A stretch of 16,858 nt of DNA from a virus. Location of the stretch: the UHGV virus genome UHGV-0362799; one strand, written 5' to 3'. Below the pieces are notes generated by a model. The model was not told where the DNA came from and ran no database searches. It was given only the letters and a program-made list of their open reading frames with translations. Below, one piece after another: positions 3,111 through 16,858 of this stretch. How positions within the stretch are numbered: position 1 is the first letter of the stretch; each line of letters opens with the position of its first letter. The translations under genes were made by a program, and so were the position numbers.

Positions 3111-3605
3111 ATGAGCATGATTGCAAAACCCGGTATCACTGCCGCGACGGAGGATGTCGCGGACACGGACGACGGTGATGCACGCATCACCACGGACGAC
3201 TTCTGGCCGGAGACAGAACTGCGCGCGCTGCGCCTTGCCGTGCGCCTGCCCGGTCGCACCACCACGTCGCGTCTGATGCACGCGGCAACCGAAGCCGTGG
3301 CACACGTCACCGGTGAGCTGCGCAACTGGCAGACGCAGCAGATGAATGACGGATACCGCACGCTGGCGGACGTTCCGGCCTCCCGCGTGAACGGCGAAAG
3401 CGTCAACGTGCACCGCTTCCGCCTTGCGGTGTATGCCGCCACCCGCGCCCTGATACTGGAGCGCGTGCGCGATGTGGACACCACCGAACAGGGCGACCGG
3501 AAAGCGGACGCACTGGAAGCCCAGACCGGCGACCTCTGGCGCGACGTGCGCTGGGCCATTGCCGATATTCAGGGTGCACCGCGCATCTTTGCGGGGCTGT
3601 GCTGA
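3111..3605 (+). CDS. L: Head completion/stabilization protein (gpL family)
   Basis: 164-aa ORF, RBS ACGGAGG upstream; conserved position M-L-X; size matches P2 gpL (about 169 aa). Confidence 0.85.
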   Translation: MSMIAKPGITAATEDVADTDDGDARITTDDFWPETELRALRLAVRLPGRTTTSRLMHAATEAVAHVTGELRNWQTQQMNDGYRTLADVPASRVNGESVNVHRFRLAVYAATRALILERVRDVDTTEQGDRKADALEAQTGDLWRDVRWAIADIQGAPRIFAGLC

Positions 3606-3805
3606 TGAAGGTGAAGGCATTACAGGGCGACACCGTTGACCTGCTGTGCTTCCGGCACTACGGCACAACGCAGGGCGTGACCGAAAAGGTGCTGGCCGCC
3701 AATCCGGGGCTGTGCGGACAGATTTTTCTGGAGGCCGGACAGGAAGTGGAATTACCGGAGCAGGAAGAGAAAAAAACACGGGAGACGGTGCAGTTATGGG
3801 ATTAG
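3605..3805 (+). CDS. X: Tail protein X (small LysM-like protein)
   Basis: ATG at 3605 overlaps the L stop (TGATG); 66-aa product MKVKALQGDTVDLLCFRHYG... matches the gpX pattern (about 67 aa). The ORF track starts at an upstream GTG (3599). Confidence 0.75.
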   Translation: MKVKALQGDTVDLLCFRHYGTTQGVTEKVLAANPGLCGQIFLEAGQEVELPEQEEKKTRETVQLWD

Positions 3806-4089
3806 GTTTTTTTCGCAGTATTTACGACCACATCGCCTTCGCCGCCTCCGTCTCTGCGGTCACGATTGGCGCGATGACCATCAGCGAAAAAATCGCACTG
3901 GCCGGGCTGCTGCTGGGTGCGCTTTCACTCTTTCAGGGCTGGCTTCACCGCCGCCGCATGGAGCGTGCACAGGTACGCCGCAATGCGCTGATTGCACAGA
4001 TTCTGGCGCAGGCCGGAACGCGCGGGCTTCATGAAAGTGAACAACGGGCGCTTGCCGCACTGCAACGGGATAACGATGAAAAACATTAA
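3796..4089 (+). CDS. Holin, class II (two predicted transmembrane segments)
   Basis: Internal ATG at 3796 of the 3646-4089 ORF; 97-aa product MGLGFFRSIYDHIAFAASVSAVTIGAMTISEKIALAGLLLGALSLFQGWLHRRR... has two hydrophobic helices and a charged C-terminus; position X-holin-endolysin as in P2. Confidence 0.7.
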   Translation: MGLGFFRSIYDHIAFAASVSAVTIGAMTISEKIALAGLLLGALSLFQGWLHRRRMERAQVRRNALIAQILAQAGTRGLHESEQRALAALQRDNDEKH

Positions 4090-4618
4090 GCGATATGCCG
4101 CCGCCGTGATTGTGGCGCTGGGTGTCTCGCTGGCTCCCGAAGCACTGCGCACCTCACAGGAGGCACAGATAAAAATTGCCACGTGGGAAGACTGCCGCGC
4201 CACACCCTACACGGACATCGCGGGTATTGCCACCGTGGGCTGCGGCTCCACGGGGAACGTACAGAAACACCTGTACAGCGAACAGGAGGTGGCCCGCCGC
4301 TGGGTGAATGACATGCAGCGGGCGGAGAACTGCATTAACCAGAATTTTCAGGGAGCAGCCATGCCGCAGTCGGCCTTCGAAGCGATGACGGACGCGGCCT
4401 TCAATCTGGGCTGTTCCGGCCTGATGTGGTTTAAGGACCACAACGGAAAGCGCCAGCGCACCACCATCTGGAAACAGGCACAGACGCATAACTGGGCGCT
4501 GATGTGCACCCGCCTCACGGATTTTGTGAATGCGGGCGGGAAGCGCAGTCAGGGACTGGTTAACCGCCGCAGCGATTTTCGCGCCTGGTGTCTGCGGGAT
4601 GTGGAGAAACAGAAATGA
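4076..4618 (+). CDS. Endolysin, GH24 (T4-lysozyme-like) with N-terminal signal/SAR-like hydrophobic segment
   Basis: ATG at 4076 overlaps the holin end; catalytic-triad spacing E-8aa-D-5aa-T visible in ATWEDCRATPYTDIAGIATVGCG; N-terminal Ala/Gly-rich hydrophobic stretch YAAAVIVALGVSLAP. Confidence 0.8.
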   Translation: MKNIKRYAAAVIVALGVSLAPEALRTSQEAQIKIATWEDCRATPYTDIAGIATVGCGSTGNVQKHLYSEQEVARRWVNDMQRAENCINQNFQGAAMPQSAFEAMTDAAFNLGCSGLMWFKDHNGKRQRTTIWKQAQTHNWALMCTRLTDFVNAGGKRSQGLVNRRSDFRAWCLRDVEKQK

Positions 4619-5061
4619 GACTGACCACCGCCGCCGTTGTCGCCCTGTTTTCAGGGGCGCTGTATCTGGTGTCGCTGCGTCTGGCCTGGCAGGCAGGGCA
4701 TGAACGGGCACGTCGTGAATATCACGAACAGGCGCTGGCGGGAACGAATGCCGCCGTGGATGCACTTCATGCAGAACTCCGGGGCATCAGCGGCCTGCTG
4801 GCACAGGTCCGCGCCGCAGAGCAGCACCGGAATCAGGAAGGAGAAAAACGCCGTGAAGAGATACGCAACGCACTCCGGGAAAATCCGTGCGCGGCTGCTG
4901 CTGTGCCTGCCGCTGTTGCTGACCGCCTGCAACAGCGCGCCGCGCCCCGTCGTGGTCACTCAGACGCAGCACGCACCGCTGCAGGAAAGCCTGACACAGC
5001 CAACGCCGATCCCCTCCCTGCCCCGACCGCTGACGTGGGGCGGACTGGCCGTCTGGAGTGA
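4615..5061 (+). CDS. lysB: i-spanin (LysB/Rz-like)
   Basis: ATG at 4615 overlaps the endolysin stop (ATGA); N-terminal TM segment MRLTTAAVVALFSGALYLVSL followed by charged, coiled-coil-like region; contains the embedded +1-frame lipoprotein gene. Confidence 0.7.
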   Translation: MRLTTAAVVALFSGALYLVSLRLAWQAGHERARREYHEQALAGTNAAVDALHAELRGISGLLAQVRAAEQHRNQEGEKRREEIRNALRENPCAAAAVPAAVADRLQQRAAPRRGHSDAARTAAGKPDTANADPLPAPTADVGRTGRLE

Positions 5062-5146
5062 CCAGCTGCTGGACGCGCTGGAGAGCTGCAACGCCGACAA
5101 GGCAGCCATTAAAGCAACCGGACAACAACGCCGGATGCGACCGTAA
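4853..5146 (+). CDS. lysC: o-spanin lipoprotein (LysC/Rz1-like), embedded in +1 frame of lysB and extending past it
   Basis: GTG at 4853 with GGAG-type RBS; product (M)KRYATHSGKIRARLLLCLPLLLTACNSAP... has a signal peptide and lipobox LTAC, then a Pro-rich mature region; same embedded architecture as P2 lysB/lysC. Confidence 0.65.
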   Translation: MKRYATHSGKIRARLLLCLPLLLTACNSAPRPVVVTQTQHAPLQESLTQPTPIPSLPRPLTWGGLAVWSDQLLDALESCNADKAAIKATGQQRRMRP

Positions 5147-5155
5147 GGAGAAGTC

Positions 5156-5638
5156 ATGCTGAAAATGAACCGTCTGCGCGAAGCCCTCACCGCCTCATCC
5201 CGGTGGTGTCGCGCGAATCCGGAAAAACTCACCGTGTTTGCAGAAAGCGGAAGTATTGAGACCACCGGTGAAACCCCGACGTTTGTCTACCGTTACACGC
5301 TCGTGGCCTTCGTCATGGATTTTCCGGGACACATCGACGAACTGATGCTGCCGCTGATTGTCTGGCTCATGCACAACCAGCCGGATTTGCTGCTCAACCC
5401 GGAAAAAAACAGGGACGTTAAGTTTTCCGTTGCCGTCAATGACGACGACAGCACCGACCTGTTACTGGAAATTCCCGTGCGTGAACGCGTGAAAGTCTGC
5501 CGCAATGAACGGGGTGAACTGTATCCGGTGCACCTGCCGGAACCCCGCCCGCCTGCCGCACTGACGGGCACATGGGGGGATCTGATTGTTGAGGATGTGA
5601 CCTTTAAGGATTTGACCGATGAACACGACATCTCATGA
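5156..5638 (+). CDS. R: Tail completion protein (gpR family)
   Basis: 160-aa ORF with RBS AAGGAGAAG; N-terminus MLKMNRLREALT... resembles gpR; position after the lysis genes as in P2. Confidence 0.75.
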   Translation: MLKMNRLREALTASSRWCRANPEKLTVFAESGSIETTGETPTFVYRYTLVAFVMDFPGHIDELMLPLIVWLMHNQPDLLLNPEKNRDVKFSVAVNDDDSTDLLLEIPVRERVKVCRNERGELYPVHLPEPRPPAALTGTWGDLIVEDVTFKDLTDEHDIS

Positions 5639-6257
5639 ACCGGATGCGGTTTTTCGCGACATTCTGGACGGGCTTTCCGCCGCCGGACGGGCGCGCACGG
5701 CGCGGGCTGTCGGGCAGGCGCTGCGTCAGAGCCAGCAGGCACGTATCCGCGCACAGAAGAACGCAGACGGCTCGCCGTATCCGGCACGAAAACGGCAGGT
5801 GATGCACACCCGCCGTGAAGTGAAGTTTGTGTGGAACGGCGAGGTCCGCACGCTGCGCCAGTGGGGACACAAGCGTTACCGGAGAGGCCGCGCCATCATC
5901 GGGCGCGACCCTGACCGTGGCGGCGCGCTGAGGACGTTTTACCGTGATGATATTGAGCGATACATCGCTGTATCGTCCATGTCTGCCCGTCAGACCAGCA
6001 AAAAAAGCACGCCGATGTTCGCGCGTCTTCGCACATACCGCTGGTTAAAAATGCGCTCAGATGCGGAAGGCGCTGTTGTGGGCTTCGATGGCCTGGCGGC
6101 ACGGATTGCCCGCGTGCATCAGGCAGGGTTACGCGACGAGGTGGCTCCGGGCGTGATGACCACCTACCCGGTGCGTGAACTGCTGGGTATAACCGCAGCC
6201 GACGAACGCCTGGTATATGACACGATTATCCGCTCCCTGAGGAGTGCGGCACGATGA
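5619..6257 (+). CDS. S: Tail completion / virion morphogenesis protein (gpS family)
   Basis: ATG at 5619 with AAGGA RBS 8 nt upstream, overlapping the R 3' end; 212 aa (longer than P2 gpS at about 150 aa); position R-S-V. Confidence 0.7.
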   Translation: MNTTSHEPDAVFRDILDGLSAAGRARTARAVGQALRQSQQARIRAQKNADGSPYPARKRQVMHTRREVKFVWNGEVRTLRQWGHKRYRRGRAIIGRDPDRGGALRTFYRDDIERYIAVSSMSARQTSKKSTPMFARLRTYRWLKMRSDAEGAVVGFDGLAARIARVHQAGLRDEVAPGVMTTYPVRELLGITAADERLVYDTIIRSLRSAAR

Positions 6258-6835
6258 CAGCGGAAATCATGCGACTGCTTGCAAACATCATCCGCACGGG
6301 CGTGATTTTTGCCGTGGACGAAACCACGTGGCGCGTTCGCGTGCGCAGCGGAGAGCTGGAAACCGACTGGCTGCGCTGGAACACACCACGCGCGGGCGCA
6401 TTCAGCGTCTGGCTGCCGCCTGCCGTGGGCGAACAGGTCATGATTGCCTGTATCAATGGCGACCCCGCAACCGCCACCGTCATCGGCAGTCTATGGAGCA
6501 GCGAACATCCTGCGCCCGGCAGCAGCCTGACGGAAATCGTGGTCACAGCGCCTGACGGCGCGGTGTTCCGCTACGATGCGGACGCAGGCGCGCTGAGCGC
6601 CAGCGGAATCAGAACCGCCACCATTCAGGCCGGAACGGGCGTGACGCTGGACACCCCCACCGTCACCTGCACAAATCATCTGAAGACGGCAACGTTTGAG
6701 GTGACAGAAGGCGGAACCCTGAGTGGCAATATCTCGCACAGCGGCGGTGATTTCACCTCCAACGGTGTGACGCTGCACACGCACAAACACAGTGGCGTGA
6801 AGAGCGGCGGCGACACCACAGGAGGCCCGCAGTGA
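6254..6835 (+). CDS. V: Baseplate spike/assembly protein (gpV family)
   Basis: ATG at 6254 overlaps the S stop (ATGA), RBS GAGGAG; 193 aa; C-terminal HTHKH motif consistent with the metal-binding HxH apex of gpV-type spikes. Confidence 0.85.
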   Translation: MTAEIMRLLANIIRTGVIFAVDETTWRVRVRSGELETDWLRWNTPRAGAFSVWLPPAVGEQVMIACINGDPATATVIGSLWSSEHPAPGSSLTEIVVTAPDGAVFRYDADAGALSASGIRTATIQAGTGVTLDTPTVTCTNHLKTATFEVTEGGTLSGNISHSGGDFTSNGVTLHTHKHSGVKSGGDTTGGPQ

Positions 6836-7197
6836 GTGCACGTTTTCTGGGGATGAACCCCGAAGCCCCCGGCGCGCTCAGCGATACGGACCATCTGTGG
6901 AACAGCGTGAGGGATATTCTGCTGACACCGCTCGCCAGCCGGGTGATGCGCCGGGAATACGGCAGCCTGCTGCCGGATTTGCTGGATGCACCGATGAATG
7001 CCACCACCCGCCTTCAGTGCATGAGTGCCGTGGTGATTGCCCTGACGCAGTGGGAGCCGCGCATCGCCCTGAATGCCGTTGATATTCAGTGGGAGGCGGG
7101 CGGAAAAGCCGTTATCACTCTCACCGGCACGCTGACAGAAAGCCTGGAAACCGTACAGAACACACTGACACTCAGGAGCGACAATGCCAGCCGTTGA
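6832..7197 (+). CDS. W: Baseplate wedge protein (gpW / gp25-like)
   Basis: GTG start at 6832 overlapping the V stop (GTGA), RBS AGGAGG 7 nt upstream; product begins (M)SARFLGMNPE..., similar to the P2 gpW N-terminus MTARYLGMN; 121 aa. Confidence 0.85.
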   Translation: MSARFLGMNPEAPGALSDTDHLWNSVRDILLTPLASRVMRREYGSLLPDLLDAPMNATTRLQCMSAVVIALTQWEPRIALNAVDIQWEAGGKAVITLTGTLTESLETVQNTLTLRSDNASR

Positions 7198-8080
7198 CCT
7201 GTCGGAACTGCCGACACCACAGATTATTGAAACGCCGGATTTTGAAGTCATCCTGGCGGAGGTAAAAGAAGACATCATTACGTCATTTCCACAGACACAG
7301 CAGGCTGCCATCCGGTCAGCCATGGCGCTCGAGTCCGAACCGCTCACGGTCATTGCCCAGACTTTTGCGCTGCGTGAGTTGCTGCTTCGCCAGCGAATTA
7401 ATGAAGGGGCAGCGGCCTGTATGCTGAGCCATTCCACGGGTGACGACCTGGATAACCTCGCCGCCAACATGAACACCGCGCGGCTGGTCATCACTCCGGC
7501 CACGGATACCACGGAGGCCGTCATGGAAAGCGACACAGCCCTGCGGCTGCGTGCACAGTCTGCGTTTGATGGCCTCAGCGTGGCCGGCCCCACCGGGGCG
7601 TATGAATATTTTGCCCGCAGTGCCAGCGGTCAGGTGGCGGACGCGCGCGCAACCAGCCCCGCACCGGCGGAAGTCGTGGTGGCGGTGCTGTCCACAGAAG
7701 GCGACGGCACGGCGACCGAAGCACTCCTGACGATGGTCAGAAATGCGCTGAATGCCGAAGACGTTCGCCCGGTCGGTGACCGCCTGACGGTGCAGAGTGC
7801 AGAAATCATCCGGTATCAGATTGATGCCCGGCTTTACTTTTATCCGGGGCCGGAGTCGGAACCCATCCTGAATGCCGCCAGAAACAATCTGGAAACCTGG
7901 CTTGCCGAACAGGGCAAAATCGGTCGCGATGTGGCGCTCTCCGCCATCATGGCCGCGCTGCATGTTCAGGGCGTTCAGCGCGTGGAACTGACCAGCCCCG
8001 CACAGAATATTGTTATCAGTGATGTGCAGTCAGCGTACTGCACATCGTTCACGGTCAGCGCAGGGGGAACCAATGAGTGA
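7184..8080 (+). CDS. J: Baseplate assembly protein (gpJ family)
   Basis: 298-aa ORF, RBS AGGAG; size and position match P2 gpJ (about 302 aa). Confidence 0.9.
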   Translation: MPAVDLSELPTPQIIETPDFEVILAEVKEDIITSFPQTQQAAIRSAMALESEPLTVIAQTFALRELLLRQRINEGAAACMLSHSTGDDLDNLAANMNTARLVITPATDTTEAVMESDTALRLRAQSAFDGLSVAGPTGAYEYFARSASGQVADARATSPAPAEVVVAVLSTEGDGTATEALLTMVRNALNAEDVRPVGDRLTVQSAEIIRYQIDARLYFYPGPESEPILNAARNNLETWLAEQGKIGRDVALSAIMAALHVQGVQRVELTSPAQNIVISDVQSAYCTSFTVSAGGTNE

Positions 8081-8612
8081 ACCGTCACTGCTCCCCCCTT
8101 CAGCCAGCGATTTCATGCGCTGCGTGGAGCGGGGGGCTACCCGGTTGTCAGCACTACCTGTCAGCCTTAATCAGCTCTGGGATCCTGACACCTGCCCGGT
8201 GGCCCTGCTGCCTTATCTGGCGTGGGCGCTGTCCGTGGACAGGTGGGATCGTGACTGGACGGAAGAAACAAAGCGCCAGGTGATCCGTGATGCCTGGGCT
8301 ATCCACCGCCATAAGGGAACCATCAGCGCCATCAGGCGTGTGGTTGAACCCTTTGGCTATGTCATTAACGTGACGGAATGGTGGGAAACCGGCGATCCGC
8401 GAGGGACTTTCCGGCTGGACATCGGTGTACTGGATACCGGTATCTCCGCTGCGACCTATACCGAGCTGGAGCGCCTCATCGATGATGCCCGCCCGGTGAG
8501 TCGCCATCTTACCGGATTAAATATTGTGCAGGACATTTACGGGGATGTGTACGTCGGCGGGGCTGTATTTTGCGGCGACACTATTGAGGTTTATCCGGGA
8601 GAGGTTGTCTGA
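8073..8612 (+). CDS. I: Baseplate/tail protein I (gpI family)
   Basis: Internal ATG at 8073 (MSEPSLLPP...) overlapping the J 3' end by 8 nt; about 179 aa, matching gpI size and position. Confidence 0.85.
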   Translation: MSEPSLLPPSASDFMRCVERGATRLSALPVSLNQLWDPDTCPVALLPYLAWALSVDRWDRDWTEETKRQVIRDAWAIHRHKGTISAIRRVVEPFGYVINVTEWWETGDPRGTFRLDIGVLDTGISAATYTELERLIDDARPVSRHLTGLNIVQDIYGDVYVGGAVFCGDTIEVYPGEVV

Positions 8613-8614: not shown

Positions 8615-11461
8615 ATGAAATATGGTGCCATTATCACAGCGGCTGGCGCTGCCAGGCTGGCTGCGGCCACAACAGCAACAGGCCAGAAGCTGAACATCAC
8701 TCACATGGCCGTGGGAGATGGTAATGGAAATCTCCCGGAACCATCGGCCTCACAGGCCGCCCTGATCAATGAAGTCTGGCGCGGGACGCTGAATAAAATT
8801 ACACAGAACAGCAAAGCGCCAAATCAGGTGATTGCGGAACTGGTTATTCCTCCGGAAGTTGGCGGCTTCTGGATGCGGGAGCTGGGGTTGTATGACGACA
8901 GCGGAACCCTGATTGCCGTCGCCAATATGGCAGAAAGCTACAAGCCGTTACTCGCCGAAGGTTCGGGGCGCTCAATGGTCTGCCGCATGTTCATCATCAT
9001 CAGCGATATGAACGCGGTGAATCTGTCAGTGGACAGCAGCGTCATTGCCGCAACACAGGAATATGTTAACGAAGCCATCTCCGGCCTGCACCGCGCCATC
9101 ATTGATGATGTGGTTCTTCAGCATAAAGTTGTCCACGATATTGACTACGCCGGTATTTTTGACGGCGCGGATAAGATGAGTCAGGGGTTCTGTATCTGTG
9201 ATACGCCGCAGGGAACCAGAATGTTTCTGCATCAGCCTGTATCGGGTGGCGTAAGGATTGTTGAAACGACATTTAACCCTGACGGAGAAAACGAAAACCC
9301 GACGGTCATTTCGTTTTCTCCCGTTTTCGCTGATATTGGTCACCAGAGTATCGGGGCTGTATGTGAAGACGGTCGCGTGATGCTGTATACCCCGACCGCT
9401 GACGGCAAGGGTGTGAATATCATCAACTGGAATGGGGCTGACACCAGTCTGACAGATGTCACCCGTACGGAGATTTTCACCTCTGACTTTTTTACCGGGG
9501 ATGAAATTATAACGGTGGCATTGTCGGCAGACGGAAGCCTGTTGATTGTTCAGTCAAGTAATGAAGCCGTCCATCTTCATTACAACAGGGATGACCGCCG
9601 CACAGTTTATGTTTTCGATCGCGCTTCTCTGACGTTTAAACACCGGATTTATCTGTCCACCCAGTCAATGGTGTCGCAGGCATTTCAGGGGATGGCCAGC
9701 GATGGTCATTATCTGTTTGCTTATTACGGTTATACAGGCGTATTTCTGACTCACCGCATTGTTGTATATAACCTGTCAACGGGCGAAGTTGTCAGACAGT
9801 TCAATGTGGATGGCGTTCGTGCCAGGTATGGCCGCCAGAAAATGCTGGGGAATGCAGAGCTGGGGTATCCCGTTTTGCAGGAAGCCGAAGGGCTGGCTCT
9901 CCATAACGGAAAACTGTATCTGCTCGATATGGATTTCTGGTGTCAGACAGCCGATGTGGTTTCTTTTGAGGGGGCATACTTTGCAGCACGTGCAACAAAT
10001 TTTTCTGGCCGTTCCCCGGTGAATCCATCTTACTGGACGCCTACAGCATATGGAACGGCGGCTGCAACGAAATATGATGCCACGAAGTCTTATACGTGTG
10101 GCGTGGCGACAAAACGCAGCAAAGCTGTGGTTTCCGTGGAGGCTTACGACGGCACAGGCTATCTGGTGGACTCCGGCGTGGCGTTTCCTGACAGCCATGC
10201 CAGCCTTTTTCTGAGTCCCAATGCTGTAAATATTGCCCTGTCACCCAATGAAGACTTCCAGGTGGCAGCCTATGAGCAGAATCTGCGCTCGCATCGCCCG
10301 TTATTTGAGGTCAGAAAGGAGGCTCCGGATACAGACACTTCTGCTGCTGTTTTTCGTTTGTTCGGGGATGCGTTCCGAACCGGAGAATACACAGGCCGCT
10401 ACGTTCAGTGGAAACACCGACTGAACGCCGTGCACGATTGTCTGGAAATACGCGCTGACGTGGATTTGTTGAGCGGTGGCGGGATTAACCTTTACTCAAT
10501 GAACGATACTCAGTCGGCGGGACGCACAAGGCTTTATTGCACCGATGGCAGTGAAACCTGGTCTGTATTATTGAGTCCGGTCTCGCCGTCATTTCATCCC
10601 GACCAGGACAAGGCAATGAATCTGGGGTCATCGCCAAATCGCTGGAATGTGGCATACCTGCAGGGCGTGAATATTAAATCGGATGACGAAACCCAGAAGC
10701 GCATGACCATCAGCACCACGCTGAAGGCGGGAGCTTTCCAGGTATCAACAGTCGGGAATCTGGGTATTTATGACGATTCTGCTGACGCTTATGTAATTGC
10801 AGCCCGTAGTGACGGCACTGCATTCATGCAGATGGATACAGATATTAACGGTGCATTCCGGCCATCGGTTAACAATACCAGCGACCTGGGTGCGCCCAAC
10901 AAAGCGTTCCGGAGCGTGTATCTCTGCAACTCGCCGACCGTTGTGTCGGATGCGACGTTAAAGGATACACCGCGCGATGCGACGGCAGCCGAAAACGCGG
11001 CATTTGCAGAAATAGCACGGCTTCCGGGCGTGTGGCGCTGGTTACAGAGAATTGAGGAGGAGGGCGAGGACGCGCGTCTGCACGCCGGGCCGACAGTCCA
11101 GGCCGCGATAGCCGTGATGGAGAAACACGGTCTGGACTGGCGGAAATACAGCGCATTTTGTCTGGATTCGTGGGAAGCGGAGGAGGCACAGTACGAAGAT
11201 ATACCGGAAGAGTATGAAGATATTCCGGTTCAGCCAGCGATTTATTCGGATGAAGGGGAGCTGTTGAGCGGGACAACCCGTGTGCTTACCCGACAGGCGG
11301 AAAGGGTTCTTGTTCGCCCTGCAACCGAAGCAGGAAGCCGTTATCGCTTCCGGAAAGAGGAGCTTCTCTGGTGGTGTCTGCGTGCTGTTGTCAGCCAGGT
11401 GGATGCGCTGACAGAGAGTATCAGCGCACTTACCCGCCGTGTTGATTTACTGGAGGAATAA
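8615..11461 (+). CDS. H: Tail fiber protein (gpH family N-terminus; divergent central region; C-terminal intramolecular-chaperone-like domain)
   Basis: 948 aa. N-terminal about 160 aa carries the conserved gpH block ...MAVGDG...ELVIPPEVGGFWMRELGLYDDSGTLIAVANMAESYKP. The rest diverges from P2 H. The C-terminal about 170 aa begins SDATLKD and ends in a predicted helix, resembling peptidase S74-type self-cleaving chaperone domains. Confidence 0.9.
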   Translation: MKYGAIITAAGAARLAAATTATGQKLNITHMAVGDGNGNLPEPSASQAALINEVWRGTLNKITQNSKAPNQVIAELVIPPEVGGFWMRELGLYDDSGTLIAVANMAESYKPLLAEGSGRSMVCRMFIIISDMNAVNLSVDSSVIAATQEYVNEAISGLHRAIIDDVVLQHKVVHDIDYAGIFDGADKMSQGFCICDTPQGTRMFLHQPVSGGVRIVETTFNPDGENENPTVISFSPVFADIGHQSIGAVCEDGRVMLYTPTADGKGVNIINWNGADTSLTDVTRTEIFTSDFFTGDEIITVALSADGSLLIVQSSNEAVHLHYNRDDRRTVYVFDRASLTFKHRIYLSTQSMVSQAFQGMASDGHYLFAYYGYTGVFLTHRIVVYNLSTGEVVRQFNVDGVRARYGRQKMLGNAELGYPVLQEAEGLALHNGKLYLLDMDFWCQTADVVSFEGAYFAARATNFSGRSPVNPSYWTPTAYGTAAATKYDATKSYTCGVATKRSKAVVSVEAYDGTGYLVDSGVAFPDSHASLFLSPNAVNIALSPNEDFQVAAYEQNLRSHRPLFEVRKEAPDTDTSAAVFRLFGDAFRTGEYTGRYVQWKHRLNAVHDCLEIRADVDLLSGGGINLYSMNDTQSAGRTRLYCTDGSETWSVLLSPVSPSFHPDQDKAMNLGSSPNRWNVAYLQGVNIKSDDETQKRMTISTTLKAGAFQVSTVGNLGIYDDSADAYVIAARSDGTAFMQMDTDINGAFRPSVNNTSDLGAPNKAFRSVYLCNSPTVVSDATLKDTPRDATAAENAAFAEIARLPGVWRWLQRIEEEGEDARLHAGPTVQAAIAVMEKHGLDWRKYSAFCLDSWEAEEAQYEDIPEEYEDIPVQPAIYSDEGELLSGTTRVLTRQAERVLVRPATEAGSRYRFRKEELLWWCLRAVVSQVDALTESISALTRRVDLLEE

Positions 11462-11463
11462 TT

Positions 11464-11748
11464 ATGGACTTAACACCGGTGTTCCATGCACTTTGTGCGG
11501 TGGCCGCTCAGTTTCTGGTTGGTCTTTTTACCGGAAACTGGGCTTACGGAGCGATAGCCGGTTGTACGTTCTTCATTGCGCGTGAACACACCCAGGCAGA
11601 ATATCGCTGGATTGAAATGTTCGGGCATGGCAGGCGTATGAATATGCCGTGGTGGGGCGGTTTTGACCCACGAGCGTGGGATATGGCAAGTCTGATGGAT
11701 TTTGCAGTGCCGGTGGTGGCATGTCTGCTGGTCTGGCTGGTCGTATGA
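11464..11748 (+). CDS. Small hypothetical membrane protein, translationally coupled to the tail fiber gene
   Basis: ATG 3 nt after the H stop with excellent RBS GGAGGA 6 nt upstream; 94 aa with two hydrophobic segments (residues about 6-39 and 77-94) flanking a Trp/Arg-rich loop; followed directly by a terminator. No family recognised. Confidence 0.6.
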   Translation: MDLTPVFHALCAVAAQFLVGLFTGNWAYGAIAGCTFFIAREHTQAEYRWIEMFGHGRRMNMPWWGGFDPRAWDMASLMDFAVPVVACLLVWLVV

Positions 11749-11760
11749 CGTAGCAGGAAA

Positions 11761-11785
11761 CAGGGGGATTTGCCCCTGTTTTTTT
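11761..11785 (+). terminator. Rho-independent terminator ending the fiber operon
   Basis: CAGGGG-GATTTG-CCCCTG hairpin followed by TTTTTTT, 13 nt after the stop of the 94-aa gene. Confidence 0.7.
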
Positions 11786-11786
11786 G

Positions 11787-11930
11787 TTCAGAATGCAGCC
11801 TTCACCATTCGTCTCTAATCGTATTCAGTAATTCGCCCGCAGAAACAAACTAAAATTCATCCCCCGCATCACGCCACTGAAAGCAGACGGTAAACTCCAG
11901 ATTTTCAAACCAGCGTCAGAAGTATTTAAA
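11787..11930 (-). pseudogene. Degenerate remnant of a gpU 3' end (frameshifted fragment)
   Basis: About 70-80% nucleotide identity by eye to 12569-12705, the 3' end of the intact U gene. Reverse translation gives ...SAGELLNTIRD then a 1-nt deletion relative to U (...SAGELLNALKDKMPVAAF*). No start codon and no upstream part of the gene. Confidence 0.55.
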
Positions 11931-12151
11931 TGGCACCAGATGTAATATGCAGGCGATTAATATGGTGTGCTTAAAGATCATAAAAGCGGGCAACATTAAA
12001 ACTCCGGGCTGTGTAAATTACCGCCACTCATAATCAGAGATGAAAACAGAATTAAACTGGCGGAGTGGATTGTATACATAAAATAAGTTCAGTTGTTGAC
12101 TTTCACTTCCGTGAATTGATGAAGGTTATTACAATACATCGGTATGATCTC

Positions 12152-12176
12152 TCCTCCTTAAAAGGGAGGACTTTTT
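12152..12176 (+). terminator. Candidate intrinsic terminator
   Basis: TCCTCCT-TAAAA-GGGAGGA hairpin followed by CTTTTT. Confidence 0.45.
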
Positions 12177-12193
12177 AGAACGCAGAAATTATT

Positions 12194-12256
12194 TATAATC
12201 CCGTAGTGTTCTATACATGCAAACATTCTTTTTCCGCCCCGTGCGGGCTTTTTTTT
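12194..12256 (+). ncRNA. Candidate small transcription unit S1 (-10 TATAATCCC to short GC hairpin plus T8)
   Basis: TATAAT at 12194-12199 with AT-rich upstream region; GC stem 12236-12248 followed by T8 (12249-12256); predicted transcript about 50 nt; no convincing ORF or RBS. Confidence 0.25.
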
Positions 12257-12324
12257 GCCGCAAAGATACAGTAACAAACAAAATTGTAATCATGGCAATC
12301 AAAACACGAGAAACATTTTCAGCA

Positions 12325-12353
12325 ATTGCAATAACAAATTAAAATATTGCAAT
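12325..12353. promoter_or_regulatory. Two perfect ATTGCAAT palindromes spaced 21 bp centre to centre (operator-like); a third, imperfect, ATTGTAAT lies at 12283-12290
   Basis: ATTGCAAT at 12325-12332 and 12346-12353; the second overlaps the -35 of the S2 promoter; ATTGTAAT is centred 42 bp upstream of the first. Confidence 0.35.
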
Positions 12354-12376
12354 TGACAATCCCCGCTTAATATAAT
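12347..12376 (+). promoter_or_regulatory. Candidate sigma70 promoter (TTGCAA-N18-TATAAT)
   Basis: TTGCAA 12347-12352 and TATAAT 12371-12376; an alternative -35 TTGACA at 12353-12358 gives only a 12-bp spacer. Confidence 0.4.
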
Positions 12377-12382
12377 CCCTTC

Positions 12383-12444
12383 CGGAACATAGAACATTAA
12401 ATCTTCACACAATGCATGTTGCCCTCTTTATGAGGGCTTTTTTT
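12383..12444 (+). ncRNA. Candidate small RNA S2 (promoter to terminator, about 60 nt)
   Basis: Predicted start about 7 nt after the -10; ends at the GCCCTC-TTTAT-GAGGGC plus T7 terminator (12421-12444); only a 30-aa ORF without RBS runs through the terminator. Confidence 0.3.
12421..12444 (+). terminator. Rho-independent terminator
   Basis: GCCCTC / GAGGGC stem with 5-nt loop followed by TTTTTTT. Confidence 0.65.
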
Positions 12445-12537
12445 ATTTCCAGAATATCACCATTGCCATCATCGGGCGATTTATATATAGTCAGAATGTA
12501 TTGACAACATTTTGCTTCTTTTCCATGAAGGCCATAA

Positions 12538-12567
12538 GGGAGTGCTTTTTACACTCCCTCTTTTTTT
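12538..12567 (+). terminator. Rho-independent terminator (+ strand) abutting the U stop codon
   Basis: GGGAGTG-CTTTTTA-CACTCCC followed by TCTTTTTTT. In the - orientation the hairpin is followed only by UUAU, so it acts mainly on + strand transcription heading into U antisense. Confidence 0.65.
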
Positions 12568-12569
12568 AT

Positions 12570-13028
12570 TCAGAATGCAGCCACAGGCATTTTGTCTTTA
12601 AGCGCGTTCAGCAGTTCGCCCGCAGAAGCAGACTGAAACCGCTCTCTCATATCCTCATCACACCGCTGAAAGCTGATGGAAAACTCAATCTTTTTTGCCT
12701 TTCCGTAACGATCCAGCTCGGAGCGGGTGGTCTGTAATCCTGTAATCACGTACATTCCGTAAATCTGCCCCGTGCCATCAATCAGCGGCCAGGGACATCC
12801 GGTGTAGGCCTGGGTGTTCAGCAGTGTCAGTGACACCTCACCACCGGTAATTTCCGGGTACAACAGACCGGACAGCGTGATCTGATCGTCACCTGCGCCA
12901 ATATACTGCCAGGCCGCAGAGCGGTTAATGCGCTCATTTTTCACATGTCGCCATGTTTTGCTCTGCTGGATCTGCTGATGCGGAAGCGTTTTCAGCTCAA
13001 ACACAAACATGCCAAAAATCATCATCAT
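12570..13028 (-). CDS. U: Tail protein U (gpU family)
   Basis: 152 aa, starts MMMIFGMFVFELKTLPHQQIQQSKTWRHV...LSGLLYPEITGG, recalled as the gpU family signature; RBS AGGAGA upstream; directly downstream of the tape measure gene. Confidence 0.85.
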   Translation of the reverse strand: MMMIFGMFVFELKTLPHQQIQQSKTWRHVKNERINRSAAWQYIGAGDDQITLSGLLYPEITGGEVSLTLLNTQAYTGCPWPLIDGTGQIYGMYVITGLQTTRSELDRYGKAKKIEFSISFQRCDEDMRERFQSASAGELLNALKDKMPVAAF

Positions 13029-13041
13029 AATTGCGTCTCCT

Positions 13042-16000
13042 TTAGTCCCTGTCGCGGAAGCTGTTCATGCCTGTACGCGCCTGTCTGCGCATCTCTTCGC
13101 GGACGGCCTCACCAACCAGTTTTGCCAGTTCGCGCGGATTCTGTGTGTTGACGTTGTGCAGATGTACATGTATCTCACCGGAAAACGCAGCCGCCTGCGG
13201 CTGTGGCGCAGCTTCCCTTCTGGCCGCATCCGGTCGCAACGGGGGCCGGATAGCCTCCGCGACGGGAGCGGAAGCCATTACCGCCCCCGTCATACCTTCA
13301 GCCACGTTACGCGGCTGCGGCAGTGCGGAGACCTGGCGGGCCACGTTCACAACGGGAGCGGGGGCACTCACCGCAGGGGTGGGCAGTACACCTGTCAGTC
13401 TCTGCCAGAGCATTGTCAGTGCATCCGTCAGCCCTACGCCCGCCGATACCGCCTGCACCGTCCGGACAACCTGCGGTGCTTTCCACTCGCCGTGAATGAT
13501 TTCGGATCCGGGCAGATTTTTGAAAACAATATCGCCGGGACCGACGCGCCTGCGTGTTTCCTCAAGAAGCCCGCCGGTGTTGCTGGCGGTTTTCTGTATC
13601 CCCTGCCGGAACCATGCCTCATCCAGCGGGGATTTGCTGCCGGGTTTGCCGACCGGATTGTCCGCCGTTCCCCTCACCTCTCCGGGAACAGCAGGGGCAG
13701 GTACTGCGGGTTTATTGTCACCGTTGTTTTCCGCTGCATCTGATGACCACGACCATGGTTTCTGCACCATTTTTTTCTGTGCAGGATCCCACTCCCACGC
13801 AACCGGCGCTTTTTGTGTGGCCTGTTTTGCGGCGCTCTCCTGGAGTTTTTGCGTCTCCTTCTGTGCCTCTTTGATGCCGTCCGGGATGACACCCAGCCAC
13901 TTCAGCACGGTACCGAGGCCATCAAGGAGCAGCGTCAGCGGCCCCAGCACAATGTTCTGAATGACCCACCCCAGCGTTTTCCCGAACGACTCCCCTGCAC
14001 TGGTGCATTTGTCGAGCGTCTCTTTTGAGGCGTTCGCAGGTTCAAGCAGGCGGGTGAACCACTCCCACACGGCTTTGATGCCGTCGCCAATCAGCCCGAA
14101 CACCGGAGCCAGCGATGCAAAGGCTTGCCGCAGCGGTTGCAGCGCCTCCCACACTCCGGCAAAAAAGCCGGAAAAAAACGCGCTGATCTGATCCCAGTAT
14201 TTCCACACCAGAACCGCGCCGCCCACCAGGGCGGCAACAATCAGCCCGACCGGACTGAACAGCGCCCCCAGTGCGCCCCCCAGTACCGACACCGCCCCCG
14301 TGACCAGCCCCCACAGCGCAGGCAGCCCCGTCAGGCGCAGTGCCATCGCAGACACAAGCCGGACAGCACCACCAATGCCACCGCCCCCCGTCAGCAGCCC
14401 CAGTCCCAGTTGCAGTTTTGCCAGTGGCCCCGCAATCAGCCCGAGCGTCAGTGACAGCGCACCGAACGTGGAAGACAGCGCCAGAACACTACCGCCGGTC
14501 AGCACCAGCCCCCTGACCAGCGCCTGGTGCTCTCCGACCCATTCGCGCATCCGGGTCATCCACGCGCTCACCGTCTGAACCAGCCCGCGCAAATCCTCCG
14601 TCACTGTACCGAAGATGTCCGTGCGTAGCCCTGAGAACGCACCACTCAGCGCCTGAACATCGCCGGAAAGATTACCGCGCAGTGTCTGCCCCATGCGGTC
14701 TGCCACGCCGCTGACATCACCCAGGTTGTCACGGACATCAGCCAGCGCCCTCAGGAACTGCGGGATCTGGTCAACGGAAAGGTCTTCAACGGGTGTGCCG
14801 AACAGCGCAATGGCCGTGTTCGCCCGCTCTGCCGGGTCACGGATGGCCAGCAGTGCACGGGCGGTCACCTGCATCGCCTGACGAGCAGTGCTGCCTCCCT
14901 GTGCAATGGCAGCAGACACCCGCTCAGCATTCAGGCCGAGAGTCTCATACGCTGAGACACTGGATTTCGACATATCCGAACCCCGGATGCTGAACTCCTT
15001 CACGGCATCGCCGGTTTTGTCCAGCGCAAACTTGCCCTGCTTTGCCATCTCAACCAGCAGACTCATTGTCTCGCTGCCGGTGAAGCCCATGTTGCGGAAG
15101 TGGGTGGAATACTCGTGCAGAATTTCCGGCAGTTCATCGCGCATTTCAGCGGACATACGCTGCATCCCTGCCGTCATCAGGTTAGTAGCCTCGTCACTGC
15201 TGGCAGCCAGCCCGTTCTTCATCATGATGGCAGCGGCCTGAATGCTCTGCGGCACATCAACACCAAAGACGGTCCGCATATCCAGCGCACGACGGCTGAT
15301 GCGCTCCAGTTCCCGGTCGCCGGTGTCGCCCAGTGCGCCGAGCGTACTGCGTACCGCACTCACAGCCTCCGCAGCACCGGCAAAATCAGCGAGACCGTCA
15401 GCCTGTATGTTACGAATAATGTGGGTGTAACGTGCGCCATCCTGTGCGCCTTCCCCCGAACCGGCTGCGATGACCGCACCGTGCTGTTCGGACTCCATCG
15501 CCGGAGCCATCATACGCTGCGCCGCATACAGGCCGCCTGTACCCGCCGCCATCGCCACAGCCCCTGTGTTGCGCAGTTTTTCCGCCTGTGCCTTCGCGGC
15601 CTCATAGCGGCTCTGTGCCTGCGTCACGCGAGCCAGTGCCTGCCGTTCGCGCTCGAGCTGCTCGTTGTACTGCTGTGTACGGCGAACGGCACTTTCAATG
15701 GTGCGGCTGCTGCCGGAAAGCAGAATGCCGTGTTTGCGCATTTCCCCTGCCGCCGCCTGAAGTTTTTCGCGCTCACGCGTGCGCAGCTCGTTCAGGCGCT
15801 CAAGCCGTGCAGACAGCGCCGTCATCATCTCCCGCTGCTTTTCAGAGAGGGTGTTGCCGTTCTGCTCTGCCTTTCGCAGTCCGGCGAGCCTCTGCTCCGC
15901 GCGGGCAATCTGTTCGCGGTATTTACTGAGATTTCCGGCGGCACGTTCGAACACCTTCGACTGCCTGTCGAGCGTCTGTATGTTGTCCTGCGTCTTCTGA

Positions 16001-16137
16001 AGGGATTCAGTGAGAGCGCCCACCTGACGGCGGGCGTTTTCGGTCGGGCGTGTCAGCCGGTCAATTGCGCCAAAGCTGACACGAATATCAAGGGATTTCA
16101 CTGTTGCGGACTCCGCTGCGTTGCGCCGCCCGCTCAC
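13042..16137 (-). CDS. T: Tail tape measure protein (gpT family)
   Basis: 1031-aa ORF, GTG start; coiled-coil-rich N-terminus, Gly/Ala-rich hydrophobic central block and Pro/Ala-rich C-terminus, typical of tape measure proteins; position E/E'-T-U. Confidence 0.9.
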   Translation of the reverse strand: MSGRRNAAESATVKSLDIRVSFGAIDRLTRPTENARRQVGALTESLQKTQDNIQTLDRQSKVFERAAGNLSKYREQIARAEQRLAGLRKAEQNGNTLSEKQREMMTALSARLERLNELRTREREKLQAAAGEMRKHGILLSGSSRTIESAVRRTQQYNEQLERERQALARVTQAQSRYEAAKAQAEKLRNTGAVAMAAGTGGLYAAQRMMAPAMESEQHGAVIAAGSGEGAQDGARYTHIIRNIQADGLADFAGAAEAVSAVRSTLGALGDTGDRELERISRRALDMRTVFGVDVPQSIQAAAIMMKNGLAASSDEATNLMTAGMQRMSAEMRDELPEILHEYSTHFRNMGFTGSETMSLLVEMAKQGKFALDKTGDAVKEFSIRGSDMSKSSVSAYETLGLNAERVSAAIAQGGSTARQAMQVTARALLAIRDPAERANTAIALFGTPVEDLSVDQIPQFLRALADVRDNLGDVSGVADRMGQTLRGNLSGDVQALSGAFSGLRTDIFGTVTEDLRGLVQTVSAWMTRMREWVGEHQALVRGLVLTGGSVLALSSTFGALSLTLGLIAGPLAKLQLGLGLLTGGGGIGGAVRLVSAMALRLTGLPALWGLVTGAVSVLGGALGALFSPVGLIVAALVGGAVLVWKYWDQISAFFSGFFAGVWEALQPLRQAFASLAPVFGLIGDGIKAVWEWFTRLLEPANASKETLDKCTSAGESFGKTLGWVIQNIVLGPLTLLLDGLGTVLKWLGVIPDGIKEAQKETQKLQESAAKQATQKAPVAWEWDPAQKKMVQKPWSWSSDAAENNGDNKPAVPAPAVPGEVRGTADNPVGKPGSKSPLDEAWFRQGIQKTASNTGGLLEETRRRVGPGDIVFKNLPGSEIIHGEWKAPQVVRTVQAVSAGVGLTDALTMLWQRLTGVLPTPAVSAPAPVVNVARQVSALPQPRNVAEGMTGAVMASAPVAEAIRPPLRPDAARREAAPQPQAAAFSGEIHVHLHNVNTQNPRELAKLVGEAVREEMRRQARTGMNSFRDRD

Positions 16138-16635
16138 GCCAGCTCATCACCTCGACGAGAGGCATTGAGAATATCTCGCCGGGCGACCAGTTAAACACGA
16201 CTGCTATATCGGCGACCAGTTCTTCAACGTTGTCGAACTTCGCCAGCGTGATTACGCTTCCATCACCGCCACGGACGGTTTCGCAGACTCCGTGGGAGCC
16301 AAAAAATTCGCCACCAGAGTAGCCAGCGCCACGAAATCACCGGTGGACAGTGACTGAATTTCTGCCAGCTTCAGGCGTGGTGCGGTCACGCGCGAAAGCA
16401 ATGTCATCACCGGGTCTGTTTTGAGGTTCAGCACCTCAATCAGCGACAGCCCGCGCAGTGAGCCTGCCTGGCGGATTTCCTCGCCAATCTCCACATAGTC
16501 AATAACGCGTTCGCCACGCACCACCGGGCAGGATAACTGCACACCCGTTTTTTCCTCTGCGGCTTCTGCGTTATCCACGGTGTTTTCCTCTGCAACGATT
16601 TCGTCTTTCATGATGTCATCTTTCTTTGCTGCCAT
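16088..16635 (-). CDS. Tail assembly chaperone frameshift product E+E' (-1 programmed frameshift)
   Basis: Slippery heptamer T_TTT_TTG on the - strand (+ coords 16300-16306) inside E. The -1 frame continues 70 codons (GSHGVCETVRGGDGSVITLAKFDNVEELVADIAVVFNWSPGEIFSMPLVEVMSWRERAAQRSGVRNSEIP) to a TGA at 16088-16090, overlapping the T start by about 50 nt as in P2 E/E'/T. Confidence 0.6.
16252..16635 (-). CDS. E: Tail assembly chaperone (gpE family)
   Basis: 127-aa ORF upstream of T with RBS AGGAGAAAG; contains the P2-type slippery site; acidic N-terminal extension (true start may be the internal Met 9). Confidence 0.8.
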   Translation of the reverse strand: MAAKKDDIMKDEIVAEENTVDNAEAAEEKTGVQLSCPVVRGERVIDYVEIGEEIRQAGSLRGLSLIEVLNLKTDPVMTLLSRVTAPRLKLAEIQSLSTGDFVALATLVANFLAPTESAKPSVAVMEA

Positions 16636-16650
16636 TTTTCTTTCTCCTGT

Positions 16651-16669
16651 GGCGGCACAATGTGCCGCC
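16651..16669 (-). promoter_or_regulatory. Intercistronic stem-loop between the tail tube gene and E
   Basis: Palindrome GGCGGCAC-AAT-GTGCCGCC (8-bp stem) between the tube gene stop (16682-16684) and the E RBS; no U-tract. Confidence 0.4.
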
Positions 16670-16681
16670 CTGTTAATGCTG

Positions 16682-16858
16682 TCAGTTCAGACCGAGCGCC
16701 GAACTCACGCGATCGCCAAAGACGTTCTGGCCGTCTTTTTTGTAGATGAAGTTCAGCAGGTCGATTTCTGTCACATCGCTGTCATCCACCGACTCCTTGT
16801 AGTAGGTGTTTTTGACGGCGAAGGTGTACTGTGTGGTGTCGCCCTGTTTGGTTTCGCC
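16682..16858 (-). CDS. FII: Tail tube protein (gpFII-like), 3' partial; 5' end lies beyond the window
   Basis: Open frame on the - strand from the window edge to TGA at 16682-16684 (…GETKQGDTTQYTFAVKNTYYKESVDDSDVTEIDLLNFIYKKDGQNVFGDRVSSALGLN*); position immediately upstream of E/E'/T matches the tail tube gene. Not in the ORF track because it has no start codon in the window. Confidence 0.6.
   Translation of the reverse strand, partial: GETKQGDTTQYTFAVKNTYYKESVDDSDVTEIDLLNFIYKKDGQNVFGDRVSSALGLN

Follow-up and report, generated by a model that had tools for sequence, protein, structure and literature searches.

In the record of phage P2, V-W-J-I-H-G and FI-FII-E-T-U-D lie on one strand, as a preliminary description of the DNA analysed here had stated. 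In the records of P88 and PhiSM, J-I-H-G is followed further on by U, T, E, FII and FI on the - strand, and then by D on the + strand. Both were isolated as phages that are inducible or spontaneously released and plaque-forming (P88, PMC5285337; PhiSM, PMC6456863). The P88-type order is known from deposited, classified genomes; in the Xuanwuvirus and P88 literature, it was found described in no paper.

The window, which is the whole stretch of 16,858 nucleotides of the virus genome UHGV-0362799 that was analysed, very probably represents the late-gene region of an intact-looking P2-family (Peduoviridae) Escherichia prophage with P88/Xuanwuvirus-type architecture, in which FI-U was anciently inverted relative to P2.

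Late-gene map of the window

The terminase large subunit gene P is represented by its 5' end only (1..31, - strand) and runs off the left end of the window. In the contig L151, which is 100% identical to window 1-5054, a 594-aa gene stops at the position equivalent to 31 and is followed by the portal gene. The P allele at 1..31 is unlike the alleles in complete E. coli genomes, and positions 1-49 had no match in complete E. coli genomes or IMG/VR. A contig-end artefact at 1-49 was ruled out by the identity with L151, and these positions are the start of a different terminase allele.

The genes O (188-1054, by gene call), N, M, L, X, holin (3796-4089), lysozyme (4076-4618), LysB (4615-5061), LysC (4769-5146), R, S, V, W, J and I occupy 188..8612 on the + strand, and the calls in this interval were backed by those on L147, a 99.99%-identical contig. 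They are followed on the same strand by H (8615-11461), encoding a tail fibre/spike of 948 aa, and by orf94 (11464-11748). The - strand carries an intact U (12570-13028; 152 aa; PF06995, Pfam GpU, 7e-40), the tape measure gene T (13042-16137; PF10145, PhageMin_Tail; 1019-1031 aa depending on the start chosen, and called as 1019 aa on L147) and E (16252-16635; phrog_103 tail protein; 43% identical to P2 gpE, 2.5e-15). E is extended to ~16088 as E' by a -1 frameshift at the slippery sequence T TTT TTG (16306-16300), with PF06528 (GpE) matched on the E' ORF of L147. The 3' end of the tail tube gene FII (16682-16858, - strand), located by tblastn with FII, runs off the right end of the window, and PF04985 was found on the full-length gene in L147. 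The gene calls thus bear out the earlier statement that FII-E-T-U on the - strand converge on H, with O-N-M-L-X, the lysis genes and R-S-V-W-J-I-H on the + strand.

Matches to P2 proteins were obtained by tblastn for O, L, X, R, S, V, the H N-terminus and E, and none for lysA, G, Z/fun, orf30, Y, K or D in the window. The P2-type capsid and packaging genes O, N, M and L are present according to Pfam, PHROG and P2-protein tblastn, and V-W-J-I-H together with FII-E/E'-T-U and its -1 frameshift chaperone constitute a P2-family (Peduoviridae) late-gene module. No late gene of the window is interrupted, and the E/E' slippery site is preserved as well. The S and V genes overlap and so leave no separate V-operon spacer. 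Lysozyme and LysB overlap as well (ends at 4618 and starts at 4615, respectively) and leave no room for lysA, whose absence had been noted correctly, as had that of Z/fun; both are P2-specific accessory genes which P88 lacks as well. No tRNA was detected in the window by ARAGORN, and a search of the whole window against Rfam gave nothing meaningful at gathering score. The AT-rich island noted previously was also confirmed, with a GC content of 0.36-0.41 at 11750-12750 versus 0.58-0.65 in the backbone.

Gene order among relatives

Gene order was surveyed at 123 loci with relatives of gpU. In 72 of them, both D and the fibre genes are opposite to U, and where one side was visible, D is opposite to U in a further 26 loci and the fibres are opposite to U in 5. 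P2 order was found in 9 loci, all with a gpU that is at most 47% identical to that of the window or closer to that of P2, and one locus (L018) is odd. Every informative locus with a gpU at least 60% identical has the inverted order, across ~20 genera of Enterobacterales, and closed E. coli chromosomes carry it too. The order that had been called non-canonical is shared by P88, PhiSM, these chromosomes and all ~100 informative loci with a close gpU; it is normal and widespread in the P88-like branch of P2-family phages.

A P88-like ST131 prophage has a W-to-U module with 91-95% identity to its counterpart in the window. By megablast against 50,697 phage records, a P88-like match was obtained over 9% of the window only, at ~75% identity. 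The ICTV demarcates genera at ~70% nucleotide identity over the genome; the window falls short of this identity to Xuanwuvirus in a comparison that spans the late region alone. The order of P2 sensu stricto (FI-FII-E-T-U-D co-oriented with V-W-J-I-H-G and D right after U) is not that of the window. Taken together with identical contigs, the window has the P88-type order, with U-T-E-FII-FI convergent on the fibres and D/ogr divergent from FI.

Tail fibre cassette and the duplicated U 3' end

The H protein has a P2-type collar at its N-terminus (residues 2-148, PF12571, 6e-54) and a Peptidase_S74 intramolecular chaperone at its C-terminus (residues 778-840, PF13884, 2e-9). The family phrog_19921 ('tail spike protein') spans its full length, and window 9683-11386 has 79.6% DNA identity to the tail spike of phage Pollock. 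A Peptidase_S74 domain aids trimer folding and is then cleaved off, and a separate assembly chaperone such as gpG is not needed; G is thus expected to be unnecessary here because H ends in such a self-chaperone domain. The adjacent orf94 encodes a small hydrophobic protein without any Pfam match, which belongs to phrog_1443 (unknown function; 9e-56), has 90.9% DNA identity to ORFs of phages HannyBb, 2G7b and Tritos and accompanies the S74 fibre cassette.

A degenerate copy of the last ~40 gpU codons, with the stop and the adjacent T-run, lies behind orf94 (U' scar, 11774..11905, - strand). The duplication, reported previously, was reproduced by the alignment of 11774-11905 with 12556-12694 (101/139 = 73%, E 3e-18), in which ungapped blocks are 79-93% identical to the U 3' end; the copy contains in-frame stops. 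In 67 complete E. coli genomes the copy is conserved at 99% identity or more, and in L005/L052 the orf94 homologue is followed by a 70%-similar scar. A search of 5,426 E. coli genomes for the donor of U' did not find it, the closest intact U being ~74% identical. No U' scar was detected at the P88 locus or those of other genera by a DNA-level search, which could miss one at their divergence.

Next to the scar is the remnant of a displaced fibre module (11916..12113, + strand), consisting of the last ~30 nt of an older H followed by a G 5' fragment (11947-12033, + strand) and, in a different frame, a G 3' fragment (12012-12113, + strand), with ~400 nt of G deleted. At the DNA level, the remnant has an 81% match across the fibre-assembly junction of a P2-type phage, and by tblastn the two fragments match tail-fibre-assembly proteins (E 7e-8 and 2e-3, respectively). 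An intact G, as had been observed, is missing after H; the gene is nevertheless not wholly absent, since this decayed H-3' end/G pseudogene persists at 11916-12113.

In the preliminary description, the duplicated U 3' end was said to fit a recombination breakpoint, and the copy does lie exactly at the junction of the two convergent operons. An origin as the breakpoint of the inversion is very unlikely: L053, which has the same inversion with the original H-G pair and an intact G at the place of the remnant, lacks the scar, and the scar is confined to the sub-lineage with the S74 fibre and orf94, where it is always attached to this cassette and followed by the displaced H and G remnants. Such an association fits a later replacement of the fibre cassette, and from these alignments the duplicated U 3' end appears to be the scar of a tail-fibre cassette swap. 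The incoming cassette would have brought an S74-type H, orf94, a terminator and a piece of the donor's U (~130 nt) in place of the old H; the swap would have made G dispensable, and its traces would be the U' scar and the G pseudogene, now decaying. L053 represents the pre-swap state H-G-[B C D]-U (B, C and D being the units described below), and L005/L051/L052 and the ST131 prophage represent post-swap states.

Flanking genes and integrity of the prophage

The sequence to the right of 16858 was inferred from contigs with 100% identity to the window in the part that they share. Past this point, contigs with 99.988-100% identity carry the remainder of FII, then FI (both - strand), and then D and ogr (both + strand). 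D encodes 377 aa (PF05954) and directly follows FI; gpD and ogr lie ~1.7 kb past the window end in these contigs. The absence of D from the window, recorded correctly before, is thus explained by its position outside, and the proposed loss or relocation of D is not supported. Inspection of the flanks had been suggested, with a gpD gene just outside the window named as evidence against that proposal; the finding of FI, D and ogr there, in 99.99-100% identical contigs, answers it in spirit. A 33.7-kb contig, identical to the window over 11637-16858, bears the attP (excised) junction.

A recent, private inversion or module shuffle that removed D and left a defective element, as had also been suggested, is still less credible than an inversion breakpoint at the U copy. 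D, G and lysA are indeed missing within the window, which also holds the scarred AT-rich island with the duplicated U end, and single relatives are damaged: terminase-to-fibre is gone from the H46 relative, an IS3 sits in H of the strain 2-1 relative and D is shortened in the ST131 copy. Against this stand D and ogr in window-identical contigs, the intact late genes of the window, the attP-form contig and the occurrence of the order throughout the clade and in functional phages. Of the suggested rearrangement, the inversion itself stood, as FI-FII-E-E'-T-U, in its place between the fibre genes and D, is inverted relative to P2, and its one-off character was not supported.

Flipping of the FI-U block as a switchable segment by a Gin/Cin-type invertase is suggested by P88 and PhiSM, in which a DNA invertase gene lies right next to U, along with an alternative fibre segment that can be inverted, and is given hardly any credence: the L001 block is without flanking inverted repeats, only one orientation occurs in all ~100 informative relatives and no invertase homologue was found in the window by tblastn. 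A misassembly by a chimeric join at ~11.7-12.6 kb has a practically negligible probability, for although a metagenome contig (ERZ773393 NODE_924) begins with the window and has an AT-rich junction that holds a repeat of the U end, this junction is 100% identical in independent assemblies, namely the L153 isolate genome (6252-16858), another metagenome (L156, 11137-16858) and the Logan contig L159, and is carried by closed chromosomes at 99.5-99.6%.

Predicted transcription of the two operons

P2-family late operons have TGT-N12-ACA sites upstream, for a zinc-finger activator of the Ogr/Delta type. The divergent P|O spacer (32-187) has at its middle an exact TGT-N12-ACA dyad (103..120), ~77-80 nt from each start codon, which is presumed to be an Ogr-type late activator site. 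A single T(G/C)T-N12-ACA element stands at the centre of the FI|D spacer (156-183 bp), at a distance of ~80 nt from either start codon. T[GC]T-N12-ACA is central in 30 of 33 distinct FI|D spacers, compared with 2.3% of shuffles, and its half-sites are kept while N12 varies. Judged by this conservation only, the element is a candidate late-activator site. An intrinsic terminator (11755..11785, + strand; hairpin with T7, -17.4 kcal/mol, z = -4.0), also found in the terminator scan, is predicted to close a long O-to-orf94 transcription unit, and no - strand intrinsic terminator was detected downstream of U by the terminator scans.

The arrangement is very probably the result of one ancient inversion that turned FI-FII-E-E'-T-U around between the tail-fibre genes and D. 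With it, the O-to-H operon (+) and the FI-to-U operon (-) converge, and D and ogr remain on the + strand, where they would now be transcribed divergently from FI. The single FI|D element in its ~160-bp spacer probably lets an Ogr-type activator fire both promoters, in the manner of P|O.

Three predicted transcription units at the convergent junction

Between the G remnant and U, three units were predicted on the + strand, each with a sigma-70-type promoter, a largely unstructured body of 45-60 nt and a strong intrinsic terminator. Unit B (12186..12256) has a TATAAT, ~50 nt and a GC hairpin with T8, found in the terminator scan; in L053, its promoter reads TTTACA-17-TATAAT by alignment. Unit C (12347..12445) has the promoter TTGCAA-18-TATAAT (match 10/12), a variable 5' part of ~17 nt, an invariant UUAAAUCUUCACACAAUGCAUG and a hairpin with T7. 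Unit D (12463..12568) has TTGCCA-17-TATAGT, ~45 nt, an 8-bp hairpin (12537-12559) and a T-run which abuts the U stop codon; it is 90-100% identical across lineages, with a compensatory G:C to C:G change in the hairpin in L005/L053. The alignment of units B-D comprised 12 distinct variants.

Across prophage lineages 83-100% identical, 12186-12570 (385 bp) is conserved like the neighbouring U CDS. It occupies the post-G moron hotspot, where P2 has Z/fun, and stands in place of the plain bidirectional terminator that other genera have at this junction. No ORF of the island exceeds 41 aa, and none has a conserved start; when a decayed invertase or Z/fun was sought by tblastn with P88 and P2 proteins, the only matches were the G remnants. 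None of the units matched Rfam 15 at gathering score, and a sensitive search of 11400-12800 gave a best E of 0.23, to the terminator hairpin only. In IMG/VR and metagenome contigs, units C and D were found in the same E. coli prophage lineage only, with too few variants for covariation, and a literature search with the exact unit sequences found them described in no paper. The stretch 12186-12570 may, tentatively and with the balance of probability against it, be prophage cargo, a locus for up to three small RNAs (B, C and D), and not debris. If so, these RNAs might serve in the lysogen as riboregulators directed at the host or the phage, or could be antisense partners of FI-U read-through transcripts, which lack a terminator of their own. 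This conserved, sRNA-like trio at the convergent junction is the only possibly new biology here.

Comparison with known systems

For the P88-type branch, the P2 map is the wrong reference. Annotation and completeness calls that look for D behind U, G behind H or lysA behind the endolysin will wrongly flag P88-type prophages as defective, although such prophages occur commonly in E. coli, ST131 among them, and throughout Enterobacterales. The window would also exemplify an operon inversion accommodated by a second divergent late-promoter node and a fibre cassette swap that leaves a datable scar (U' and the decaying G).

P2 shares with the window the late proteins O, N, M, L, X, R, S, V, W, J, I, the H N-terminus and FII, as well as T, U and E/E' with the TTTTTTG frameshift, the TGT-N12-ACA dyad in the P|O spacer, and D and ogr, which lie in the flank of the window. 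The annotated pP/pO activator site in the P2 record, a single site shared by a divergent pair of late promoters, resembles the 103..120 dyad in geometry, and the FI|D element has the same geometry as the P|O spacer of the window, with a left half-site that is mostly TCT instead of TGT. Compared with P2, the window is without the orf30/V-promoter spacer, lysA, Z/fun and an intact G, and its FI-U block is inverted, with D uncoupled from U and provided with a putative divergent promoter region of its own. With endosialidase-type tail spikes and fibres, H shares the C-terminal PF13884, fused here to a P2-type collar N-terminus.

Escherichia phage P88 and Citrobacter phage PhiSM (Peduoviridae, Xuanwuvirus) are identical to the window in late-gene architecture, having O-to-H on the same strand, U-T-E'-E-FII-FI convergent on the fibres and D divergent from FI, with S and V contiguous and lysA missing. 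Their backbone has ~74-75% DNA identity to the window, in N-M only. They differ from the window in the endolysin, which is of the M15 or GH108 type instead of Phage_lysozyme, in possessing an invertase and an invertible fibre segment, both of which the window lacks, and in the fibre, which in the window is of the S74 tailspike type without G. Finally, the B-C-D units at the window junction are absent from P88, PhiSM and every phage record searched.

Gene content and strand layout

A complete late region of the P2 family was recognised in the window from its ORFs, from Pfam and PHROG scans and from tblastn searches with the proteins of P2. From the start of the P|O spacer (the DNA between the divergent P and O genes) at the left end, the plus strand carries O (188-1054) followed by N, M, L and X, the holin (3796-4089), the lysozyme (4076-4618), LysB (4615-5061) with LysC embedded, then R, S, V, W, J and I, the 948-aa fibre gene H (8615-11461) and a 94-aa ORF (orf94, 11464-11748). 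The minus strand carries U (12570-13028; Pfam GpU, 7e-40), the tape-measure gene T (13042-16137), E (16252-16635) and the 3' end of FII (16682-16858); E has a P2-like slippery site, T TTT TTG, at 16306-16300, and the E' frame enters T. The two gene sets are separated by an AT-rich stretch (GC 0.36-0.41 against 0.58-0.65). In the P2 record D is the gene next after U and both tail operons have the same orientation, whereas in the window they lie on opposite strands, and the preliminary description of FII-E-T-U as inverted relative to the fibre operon was upheld by the gene calls and this record. The absence of lysA, G, Z/fun and D that it also reported held in part: no tblastn match to these genes or to orf30 was obtained within the window, but G survives as debris and D lies just outside. 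Of these, lysA and Z/fun belong to the accessory genes of P2 and are also absent from P88.

The first ~50 nt (1-52) had no match in complete E. coli genomes or IMG/VR contigs; the metagenome scaffold L151 shows that a variant allele of the terminase large subunit (594 aa) begins there. This scaffold is 100% identical over window 1-5054 and carries the terminase and portal genes upstream of the window. The prophage backbone is without a close relative among deposited phage genomes.

Gene D and integrity of the prophage

The window corresponds to nucleotides 1-16,858 of the metagenome contig ERZ773393 NODE_924 (28,933 bp), and four matching contigs run on past its end: L147 (99.988% identical to window 50-16858), and L153 (6252-16858), L156 and L159 (100% identical). 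In these, the remaining FII and then FI on the minus strand are followed by a spacer of ~160 bp and, on the plus strand, by D (377 aa, PF05954) and ogr (85 aa, PF04606), so that D would be expected to start ~1.7 kb beyond the window end; an attachment junction next to the host gene flk follows ogr. In the 33.7-kb Logan contig L159 the integrase end and the ogr end are joined, with a single divergence point from the flk-integrated form (L159 5540-6328 compared with L153 5621-6328); this is the attP configuration, as expected for phage DNA that has been excised or is replicating. The flanking genes and attachment sites to which the preliminary description had pointed were recovered, and the loss of D and the defective prophage that it had considered were contradicted by D and ogr in the contigs and by the attP form. 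No sign of a defective element was found in or around the window; some relatives are decayed. At least two integration sites were seen among related prophages, one adjacent to flk and one between glsA/ybaT and copA.

Fibre cassette and the duplicated end of U

H has a P2 collar domain and, at its C-terminus, a Peptidase_S74 (S74) intramolecular chaperone; fibres with such a chaperone fold without a separate assembly protein. Downstream, 11916-12002 (+) matches the fibre|assembly junction of a P2-type phage and 12012-12113 encodes a C-terminal fragment of G in another frame, the debris of this gene. The receptor-binding part of H (9683-11386) has 79.6% DNA identity to the tail spike of phage Pollock; as this Escherichia phage of 68 kb does not belong to the P2 family, an exchange of tail-spike domains between phage families is indicated. 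GC drops across H from ~0.60 to ~0.50. orf94 (phrog_1443, hydrophobic) is always downstream of S74-type tail spikes, as in the window, an ST131 prophage and the unrelated phages HannyBb, 2G7b and Tritos (91% DNA identity), and may be a cassette-linked accessory, e.g. a lysogenic-conversion or exclusion protein.

A degenerate copy of the U 3' end (U') was confirmed at 11774-11905, matching 12556-12694 with 73% identity over 139 nt (E 3e-18). Its earlier interpretation as the inversion breakpoint was not supported, because strain 135, which has the inversion, lacks the scar (its H-G pair is intact, and the conserved intergenic units and U come next), whereas the four lineages with an S74-type fibre and an orf94 homologue (the window, the ST131 P88-like prophage, L005 and L052) share the order orf94, U' fragment, G remnants, same units and U. 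U' is therefore read as the mark of a fibre swap. In the simplest history, the old H would have been replaced by a donor cassette of S74 fibre, orf94, terminator and ~130 nt from the end of the donor's convergent U; the left crossover would have fallen within the conserved collar region, the right junction close to the 3' end of the old H, and G would have decayed afterwards. A search of 5,426 E. coli genomes for the donor of this scar gave no intact U closer than ~74%.

Window 6094-13179 (from the S end and V to U) is 91-95% identical to the equivalent segment of a different, P88-like backbone. That backbone is common among ST131 prophages and differs in its T, E and FII and in having an M15 endolysin; divergence is far greater in the flanking capsid and tape-measure regions. 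The fibre module and the island appear to move between backbones by recombination.

Tandem units at the convergent junction

At 12186-12570, three tandem plus-strand units were found, termed B (12186-12256), C (12347-12445) and D (12463-12568; distinct from gene D), each with a -10 element or full promoter, a body of 45-60 nt and a GC hairpin followed by a T-run. Clustered in the island 11760-12570 are five T-run terminators, three of them inside the units, and the two highest-scoring sigma-70 matches (10/12) of the entire window, both inside the units. Conservation among 12 distinct variants is 97-98% for the promoter -10s, for the hairpins and for the 3' halves of the bodies, and 84-87% for the spacers; across prophage lineages, it is about equal to that of the adjacent U coding sequence, and the hairpin of unit D has one compensatory change from G:C to C:G. 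The units had no match in Rfam and were in no deposited phage record searched; they are carried by 72 of 5,426 complete E. coli genomes, whereas in other genera the junction is only 100-160 bp with an ordinary hairpin. They may be sRNA genes, or simply stacked terminators. At other loci (L006, L009, L013, L015, L019 and L020; Serratia, Symbiopectobacterium, Enterobacter, Izhakiella and Mixta), a conserved noncoding motif of ~45 nt, CTGTGCTG(A/C)AGCAC.GTTAAAAATGAC..TACTCGATA, lies between U and G, ~40-110 nt downstream of the U stop.

Proposed late transcription of the inverted layout

In the P2 record, both divergent late promoters of P and O are annotated as served by one activator site, halfway between the starts of these genes; the P|O spacer of the window has a perfect TGT-N12-ACA at 103-120. 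The length of the FI|D spacer is 156-183 bp, and T[GC]T-N12-ACA was central in 30 of 33 distinct FI|D spacers, ~80 nt from each start codon, and centred in only 2.3% of shuffles; its half-sites are conserved and its 12-nt spacer is variable. On the strength of this element and the shared site of P2, the FI|D spacer is proposed as a second divergent Ogr-dependent node, from which FI-U would be transcribed leftward and D-ogr rightward. As S and V overlap, O through H together with orf94 would probably form one long unit ending at the strong terminator 11755-11785. Terminator searches gave no intrinsic terminator for the minus-strand FI-U operon.

Spread of the inverted architecture and comparison with known phages

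Marker proteins were placed on 43 genomic and 80 IMG/VR loci encoding gpU relatives. D and the fibre genes were both opposite to U at 72 loci; D was opposite with the fibres beyond the locus at a further 26, and the fibres were opposite with D beyond the locus at 5. Ten loci contained neither D nor fibre genes and were uninformative, and one (L018) had an odd arrangement. P2 order was found at 9 loci, exactly those whose gpU was at most 47% identical to that of the window, or closer to that of P2. The inverted loci span ~20 genera, including Serratia, Salmonella, Enterobacter, Pantoea, Erwinia, Kosakonia, Klebsiella, Edwardsiella, Citrobacter and Symbiopectobacterium, and closed E. coli chromosomes have the inverted order too. 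No inverted repeats flanking the FI-U block were found. A misassembly, a switchable segment and a private rearrangement were rejected by this clade-wide order, the closed chromosomes and the lack of flanking inverted repeats, and the FI-U inversion between the fibre genes and D is a single, old and fixed event.

L018 (Trabulsiella odontotermitis, 10001-14000) is the sole close relative with I and H on the strand of U; J was not detected there, G is opposite to U, and the locus may represent a secondary rearrangement or a neighbouring element. In the PhiSM record OR565851.1 (2294-4745), product labels appear to be shifted by one gene: the gene in the D position (369 aa) bears the label 'ogr', and the one in the place of the sheath gene FI (394 aa) the label 'late control gene D protein'.

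In P88 (genus Xuanwuvirus), J-I-H-G is followed in turn by an invertible fibre segment and an invertase, by U-T-E'-E-FII-FI on the opposite strand and by D back on the first strand, and Citrobacter phage PhiSM has the same gene order; both phages form plaques (PMC5285337; PMC6456863). What had been described as non-canonical synteny is the normal order of a large clade that includes these two phages. The inversion is real, yet it is the ordinary and already-deposited architecture of P88-type Peduoviridae.
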